Assembly: GCF_003334355.1 (NCBI RefSeq)
Contig: NZ_QOWP01000096.1
Length of the DNA: 1,133 bases
Strand: one strand, 5' to 3'
Source: Escherichia coli
GTDB lineage: Bacteria > Pseudomonadota > Gammaproteobacteria > Enterobacterales > Enterobacteriaceae
Shown: piece by piece, positions 1 to 1,133 of the stretch
Layout: each line of letters starts with the position of its first letter
Numbering within the stretch: the first letter of the stretch is position 1
Notes under the pieces: generated by a model
The model's input: the letters and a program-made list of their open reading frames with translations, nothing else
Databases searched by the model: none
What the model was told of the DNA's origin: nothing
Program-made: the position numbers and the translations under genes

Positions 1-1133
1 AAAAACTGGATCGACAAAGAAGAATATCCGCAATCCGCAGCCATCGACCTGCGTTGCGTAAATATGGTTGCCGATCTGTGGCATGCGCCTGCGCCGAAAA
101 ATGGTCAGGCCGTTGGCACCAACACCATTGGTTCTTCCGAGGCCTGTATGCTCGGCGGGATGGCGATGAAATGGCGTTGGCGCAAGCGTATGGAAGCTGC
201 AGGCAAACCAACGGATAAACCAAACCTAGTGTGCGGTCCGGTACAAATCTGCTGGCATAAATTCGCCCGCTACTGGGATGTGGAGCTGCGTGAGATCCCT
301 ATGCGCCCCGGTCAGTTGTTTATGGACCCGAAACGCATGATTGAAGCCTGTGACGAAAACACCATCGGCGTGGTGCCGACTTTCGGCGTGACCTACACCG
401 GTAACTATGAGTTCCCACAACCGCTGCACGATGCGCTGGATAAATTCCAGGCCGACACCGGTATCGACATCGACATGCACATCGACGCTGCCAGCGGTGG
501 CTTCCTGGCACCGTTCGTCGCCCCGGATATCGTCTGGGACTTCCGCCTGCCGCGTGTGAAATCGATCAGTGCTTCAGGCCATAAATTCGGTCTGGCTCCG
601 CTGGGCTGCGGCTGGGTTATCTGGCGTGACGAAGAAGCGCTGCCGCAGGAACTGGTGTTCAACGTTGACTACCTGGGTGGTCAAATTGGTACTTTTGCCA
701 TCAACTTCTCCCGCCCGGCGGGTCAGGTAATTGCACAGTACTATGAATTCCTGCGCCTCGGTCGTGAAGGCTATACCAAAGTACAGAACGCCTCTTACCA
801 GGTTGCCGCTTATCTGGCGGATGAAATCGCCAAACTGGGGCCGTATGAGTTCATCTGTACGGGTCGCCCGGACGAAGGCATCCCGGCGGTTTGCTTCAAA
901 CTGAAAGATGGTGAAGATCCGGGATACACCCTGTACGACCTCTCTGAACGTCTGCGTCTGCGCGGCTGGCAGGTTCCGGCCTTCACTCTCGGCGGTGAAG
1001 CCACCGACATCGTGGTGATGCGCATTATGTGTCGTCGCGGCTTCGAAATGGACTTTGCTGAACTGTTGCTGGAAGACTACAAAGCCTCCCTGAAATATCT
1101 CAGCGATCACCCGAAACTGCAGGGTATTGCCCA
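1..1133 (+). CDS. gadA/gadB: Glutamate decarboxylase (PLP-dependent, Gad family), internal fragment truncated at both ends; about residues 82-458 of a ~466-aa protein
   Basis: Seen in sequence: frame 1 (codons at 1-3, 4-6, ...) is open across all 377 complete codons. The translation contains the PLP-attachment motif S-G-H-K-F (lysine codon AAA at 583-585), the GSSEAC phosphate-binding segment (130-147) and the long C-terminal segment ...[37 protein letters not shown]. From memory, the translation is identical or nearly identical to E. coli GadB/GadA over the whole window. The last 2 nt (1132-1133, 'ca') are the start of a Gln codon; about 8 more codons and the stop lie beyond the window. Paralog assignment (gadA vs gadB) is not possible here because the residues that differ between them are N-terminal, upstream of the window. 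Confidence 0.95.
574..588 (+). other. PLP cofactor attachment site: S-G-H-K-F motif, Schiff-base lysine (Lys276 in GadB numbering) at codon 583-585
   Basis: Seen in sequence: tca ggc cat aaa ttc at 574-588 in the coding frame encodes SGHKF. Established knowledge: in group II PLP-dependent decarboxylases, including E. coli GadB, the lysine of this motif forms the internal aldimine with PLP. The residue number is derived by aligning window codon 1 (K-N-W-I-D-K-E-E-Y) to GadB residue 82. Confidence 0.85.

Follow-up and report, generated by a model that had tools for sequence, protein, structure and literature searches.

Long open reading frames (ORFs) that lie codon upon codon opposite annotated genes were attributed to codon usage by Merino et al. 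(1994) and Silke (1997), both as cited in PMC3454372, and these frame -1 shadow ORFs are among the known systems closest to the locus described here. The likeness extends to the exact codon alignment, to an openness that stems from codon bias and to the lack of selection on the antisense frame itself. We see no substantive difference, save that the case of the glutamate decarboxylase (gad) genes is more visible, as the repeat concerned is emitted as a stand-alone contig. Further comparators are the antisense genes claimed for Escherichia coli O157:H7 (PMC9927249) and Pseudomonas aeruginosa (PMC8850804), in which a long antisense ORF likewise lies within an annotated gene and for which the authors put forward ribosome-profiling or expression data, or signs of purifying selection. 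Unlike these, the antisense frame at gad displays a substitution pattern without constraint.

Here, we examine a stretch of 1,133 nucleotides of E. coli DNA (henceforth the window), the minus strand of which carries an ORF of 178 aa at positions 574-1110. We are close to certain that this ORF is a shadow cast by the codon bias of the sense gene, and that + frame 1 is the sole coding frame of the window. We stress that both the sense gene and the mechanism by which shadow ORFs arise are already known, and that no new biology is involved.

Identity and origin of the window

By its sequence, the window represents an inner section of the glutamate decarboxylase gene (gadA/gadB) of E. coli, one of the best-studied genes in acid resistance. 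The piece (1-1133, plus strand) comprises codons 82-458 of 466, the final 2 nt being a partial codon, and its translation in + frame 1 runs through 377 codons with 0 stops; codons 1-81 and 459-466 fall outside, and neither the start nor the stop codon lies inside the window. All of the encoded residues (377/377, residues 82-458) are identical to those of the crystallised GadA/GadB proteins (PDB 1xey, 1pmm and 2dgk). At the family level, the window protein matched Pfam PF00282 (group II PLP-dependent decarboxylases, E 4e-99) and the NCBIfam equivalog TIGR01788, the latter with 597.9 bits (curated cut-off, 380.4), although the protein is truncated. Truncation is all that sets the window apart from these structures and families. 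The S-x-H-K motif is present as SGHKF (window aa 192-196, with SGHK at 192-195, nt 574-585), and the codon of its lysine (583-585, plus strand) specifies Lys276, the residue of GadA/GadB that, as established from the GadB structures, binds pyridoxal phosphate (PLP). Considering the 100% identity to the three crystallised proteins, the product of the window would be expected to convert glutamate to GABA and CO2.

The DNA of the window is 100% identical to the annotated gadA of E. coli strain 90-3040 and, among the matches listed, those at 100% are annotated as gadA in at least five complete genomes (this strain included). A gad match was present in every complete E. coli genome (5,426/5,426, with a median of 2 copies per genome), and in essentially all 5,426 of them the window DNA recurred at an identity of at least 95%. 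The complete gene can be seen in the annotated, 100%-identical record L001 (gadA CDS 2758-4158, 466 codons), where ccp lies on one side of it and gadX on the other, and where the window occupies 3001-4133.

The sites of the coding sequence that separate gadA from gadB were sought by comparing 4 gadA copies with 4 gadB copies, and only sites that distinguished all of the former from all of the latter were considered. Such sites were found at window coordinates <=0 or at 1152 and never inside the window, the last 5' one being the base directly before window position 1; the copies compared thus have about 1.15 kb in common without a separating site, which is why short-read assemblers emit the stretch as a stand-alone contig. 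A draft E. coli contig (L002, 1151 nt) covers exactly the span between the diagnostic sites. On the right-hand side, gadB of O157:H7 and the gadA of L001 mismatch at the base right after window position 1133. In scaffolded public assemblies, gaps of about 100 Ns mark breaks between contigs exactly at window position 1 (L021-L023), at 1151 (L021 and L022) and at 1133 (L023 and L024). We reason that a short-read assembly probably collapsed the gadA/gadB repeat into the contig that forms the window, an origin that would account for its having neither start nor stop codon. Since no separating site lies inside it, the window is assignable by its own sequence to neither gadA nor gadB, and the gadA label is taken solely from the annotation of the best matches (five matches at 100% listed). 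Coincidences with the ends of the window occur at L002, L005 and L021-L024 (around position 1860-1978).

Reading frames and codon bias

At the default threshold of 60 aa, and with ORFs running off either end of the source left unlisted, the window yielded five ORFs, every one of them on the minus strand. This reproduced what the earlier note had reported, the 178-aa ORF at 574-1110 included. Its explanation for the missing sense frame was borne out as well: + frame 1 is open for 377 codons and passes through the whole window without a start or a stop of its own, and ORFs that cross an edge are not listed. Lowering the threshold to 20 aa raised the count to 13 ORFs, of which six were on the plus strand and none of these exceeded 57 aa.

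Two of the five ORFs share the antisense frame that is aligned with the sense codons. The longer one (178 aa, 574-1110, minus strand), which begins with GTG and which we do not regard as a gene, and the second shadow ORF (84 aa, 226-480, minus strand) both have end coordinates divisible by 3, hence their codons stand directly opposite those of the sense frame. The other three, all on the minus strand and off the sense codon register, are chance ORFs with negative codon scores: 63 aa at 320-511 (-0.62 bits per codon), 85 aa at 405-662 (-0.23) and 71 aa at 810-1025 (-0.43). The length of 178 aa is itself set by the edge of the window, since the frame remains open up to the right-hand end (an open run of 185 codons) and in the genome the ORF reaches 196 aa, starting from an ATG just past the gadA stop codon (L001 3574-4164), 31 nt outside the right edge at window coordinate 1164.

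Because of the codon-on-codon register, TTA, CTA and TCA are the only sense codons that place a stop in the aligned antisense frame. These codons are scarce in the window: among 31 leucine codons there are 23 CTG, no TTA and a single CTA, and among 12 serine codons a single TCA. The aligned antisense frame accordingly holds 2 stops, compared with 6.6 predicted from average E. coli codon usage. One of the two is the TCA of Ser273 (574-576, plus strand), which reads as TGA on the opposite strand and closes the 178-aa shadow ORF; the other is the rare CTA of Leu157 (226-228, plus strand), which reads as TAG and closes the 84-aa shadow ORF. The CTA is specific to the allele of the window, as the six other E. 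coli alleles examined (6/6) have one stop in the aligned antisense frame, and both gad copies of strain H240 differ from the window at base 228. The records L022, L025 and L028 contain a gene call for an ORF of 191 aa that faces the 5' part of gad, and it is presumably into this ORF that the 84-aa shadow ORF extends when the CTA at 226-228 is lacking.

Synonymous codons were permuted in 2000 trials that kept the protein and its own codon usage, and in 37.7% of these the longest antisense ORF reached at least 178 aa; when codons were resampled from average E. coli usage, this share was 5.5%. As permutations reach such a length, the 178-aa ORF is what the protein sequence and the codon bias of this gene would be expected to produce. 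A preference for CTG among the leucines, together with the lack of TTA and the presence of just one CTA and one TCA, leaves long stretches of the aligned antisense frame free of stops.

The coding potential of the six frames was scored with a codon model and with three-periodic Markov models. The training set consisted of 9,674 codons, drawn from 32 annotated E. coli genes that lie far away on the same chromosome. Over the whole window, + frame 1 reached a codon log-likelihood ratio of +145 bits (Markov order 2/3/4: +111/+107/+59 bits) and was alone among the six frames in having a strongly positive coding score. The codon-aligned antisense frame had a codon ratio of +35 bits (Markov -14/-28/-99 bits), and the remaining four frames fell to between -218 and -271 bits by the codon ratio and to between -184 and -343 bits by the Markov models. 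Within 574-1110, the antisense ORF scored +32 bits by codon ratio (Markov order 2/3/4: +3.0/-11.4/-42.4 bits) and the sense frame +78.5 bits (+64.0/+62.7/+42.5 bits). The earlier note had proposed just such a comparison of codon-usage scores between + frame 1 and the minus-strand ORFs, and the outcome (+78.5 bits versus +32 bits over 574-1110) favours the sense frame.

The mildly positive codon score of the antisense frame has its source in the sense gene, too. The GC contents at the first, second and third codon positions of the aligned antisense frame (0.63/0.42/0.62) are near those of the sense frame (0.62/0.42/0.63), and by inheriting part of the sense GC periodicity the antisense frame comes to score above zero. 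With 0.18 bits per codon, the ORF stands close to the highest value that any antisense frame of the training genes attained (0.225, the mean being -0.20) and far lower than the sense frame. A gene caller can be misled here because this near-maximal antisense score coincides with a true gene that is not a complete ORF; given a fragment that holds neither the start nor the stop of the true gene, it could report the shadow ORF instead.

Substitution patterns and rival readings

The window was compared with six other E. coli alleles (3 gadB, 2 gadA and the draft contig L002), a small sample that furnished 47 variant codons. Each allele differed from the window at 2-28 sites, nearly all of them third positions of sense codons. 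Of the 47 variant codons, 46 were synonymous in the sense frame, and 44 of the 47 were non-synonymous in the antisense frame. Within 574-1110 the pattern was the same (23/23 variant codons silent in the sense frame, 22/23 altering the antisense protein). The antisense frame therefore evolves as if unconstrained, and the purifying selection by which an overlapping gene would be recognised is not seen in it. In a nearer relative (L003), 373 of 378 residues of the sense protein were identical, and the antisense product (P0002) was 77% identical.

Seven distant orthologues, retrieved by tblastn from a plasmid collection, extended the comparison to Proteus, a Salmonella plasmid, Caballeronia, Streptomyces, Bacillus, Listeria and Parabacteroides. 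In all seven (46-63% sense identity) the sense frame was open within the aligned span, which for the Salmonella plasmid covers residues 175-371, and in all seven the stretch equivalent to 574-1110 was interrupted by 1-10 antisense stops. The number of antisense stops broadly tracked GC3, from 1 stop in Streptomyces (GC3 0.93) to 21 in Proteus (GC3 0.33), a pattern that codon usage predicts and that a conserved antisense gene would not.

The Salmonella sequence, a gad homologue that shares about 60% identity with GadA, lies on an IncFII conjugative plasmid of Salmonella enterica (L013, CP053407.1, 74570-75678), in a record that bears no annotation; it was matched as two tblastn pieces and may be frameshifted. 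The same plasmid collection (PLSDB) holds records named 'plasmid unnamed' that are of chromosome size (NZ_OL790696.1, 4.80 Mb; NZ_OL790812.1, 4.09 Mb; NZ_CP141089.1, 4.94 Mb; NZ_CP134663.1, 4.90 Mb), and the gad matches on all four are really chromosomal.

We weighed the shadow ORF against the reading in which the 196-aa antisense ORF is a real, young overlapping gene, restricted to Escherichia and Shigella and comparable to the antisense overlapping genes claimed for E. coli O157:H7 (PMC9927249). Such a gene would agree with the antisense ORF being open in all six of the other E. coli alleles examined, with its mildly positive codon-usage score and with the gene calls that it has received in many GenBank records; the openness in these alleles and the high codon score are nevertheless consequences of the sense gene's codon bias, and 38% of the synonymous permutations attain the length of the ORF. 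The substitutions speak against it most directly, as 44 of 47 variant codons alter the antisense protein and 46 of 47 are silent for gad, and so do the interruptions in 7/7 distant orthologues and the lack of any Pfam or NCBIfam family match for the antisense product. Around its start, no Shine-Dalgarno-like sequence precedes either the genomic ATG (L001 4164) or the in-window GTG (window position 1110), and the sole upstream promoter-like match (minus strand, L001 4263-4234) agrees at 9 of 12 positions, with 3 matches counted where shuffled sequences gave 2.0 ± 1.2. Moreover, the hairpin of the intrinsic terminator of gadA (GCCCAGC...GCTGGGC, L001 4201-4218, 68-85 nt past the right edge of the window) lies on the minus strand directly upstream of the antisense ATG, and because of this position a read-through transcript of the antisense strand would meet it just ahead of the ORF. 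The paper on O157:H7 overlapping genes does not mention gadA or gadB. Taken with these observations, a young overlapping gene is very improbable, and we give even less credence to the narrower version in which the 196-aa ORF, which faces the 3' two-fifths of gadA/gadB, undergoes translation in one condition or another and is too young for purifying selection to register in a small sample of alleles.

The minus strand might, instead, act through a functional non-coding antisense RNA that regulates gadA/gadB, the ORF being incidental. Antisense regulation does exist in the gad regulon, where GadY lies opposite the 3' end of gadX. For the window, however, an Rfam scan of both strands returned no family match at E values up to 1, promoter-like and terminator-like sites near the antisense start were no more frequent than in shuffled sequence (the gadA terminator hairpin and one weak promoter-like match being all that the scan detected), and a literature search for an antisense gene or transcript of gadA/gadB found nothing relevant; we consider this the least probable of the readings, bordering on the negligible. 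The shadow ORF is thus the reading that we retain, and under it the 178-aa antisense ORF is unlikely to be expressed.

Database entries of the antisense protein

The 178-aa antisense protein had no match to a Pfam or NCBIfam family, and a protein database search with it returned 13 clusters. The best of these (P0001, 178 aa, 170 members) was 99% identical and bears the name "Uncharacterised protein [Escherichia coli]"; its GenBank members come from E. coli and Shigella sonnei, where they are termed 'Uncharacterised protein' or 'hypothetical protein'. The GenBank entries of the antisense ORF are mostly from contigs shorter than 2 kb. P0001 itself lies on a contig of 1151 nt, wholly within a partial gad gene called on the opposite strand, and P0014 was located at gad in 8/8 places (among the matches listed), with 22 of 39 index blocks holding only contigs of less than 2 kb.

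A further match, P0002, faces a gad gene that adjoins gadC and is split across three frames (L003 3001-4400). In this record (ENA ERZ27273576, contig_682_polypolish) the split gad was called as fragments of 142 aa and 193 aa, and the antisense ORF was called instead; the split may reflect either an error of long-read assembly or a real pseudogene.

P0004 (63% identity, 153 aa) is an artificial homologue. It stems from two Logan contigs (L004 1-1250 and L005 1-1085, from SRR27475602 and SRR27475677) where A stands in place of every G of the sense strand (344/344 and 310/310); both contigs were assembled from reads that had undergone bisulfite conversion or a similar deamination. As for P0003 and P0005-P0013, their sequences lead us to read most of them as this antisense frame again, continued by sequence that is out of frame or unrelated, as might be produced by frameshifted or chimeric contigs.

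Altogether eleven places, belonging to three of the 13 clusters, were examined, and all of them were antisense to gad or in artefactual assemblies, with none in an unrelated context. We considered whether the database matches could be independent homologues and rejected this, as those examined (P0001, P0002, P0004 and P0014) sit at gad or are artefacts. The expectation of the earlier note that no credible homologues would be found consequently needs rewording: matches do exist, in 13 clusters, and the ones examined are the same artefact. Homologues in unrelated genomic contexts, which the earlier note had named as the observation that would overturn its view, did not occur among the contexts examined. 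Its warning that an automated caller could mistake the 178-aa antisense ORF for a gene describes what has already happened, as the ORF stands in GenBank as a 'hypothetical protein' of E. coli and Shigella sonnei. Artefact entries of this kind swell the number of "orphan" proteins and might lead the search for new genes astray, and the value of recognising them is purely practical. Within the P0001 cluster, the member P0019 (EIN44006.1, EIO41728.1) is labelled 'glutamate decarboxylase domain protein, partial', a name that the product of the opposite strand seems to have taken over from the sense gene.
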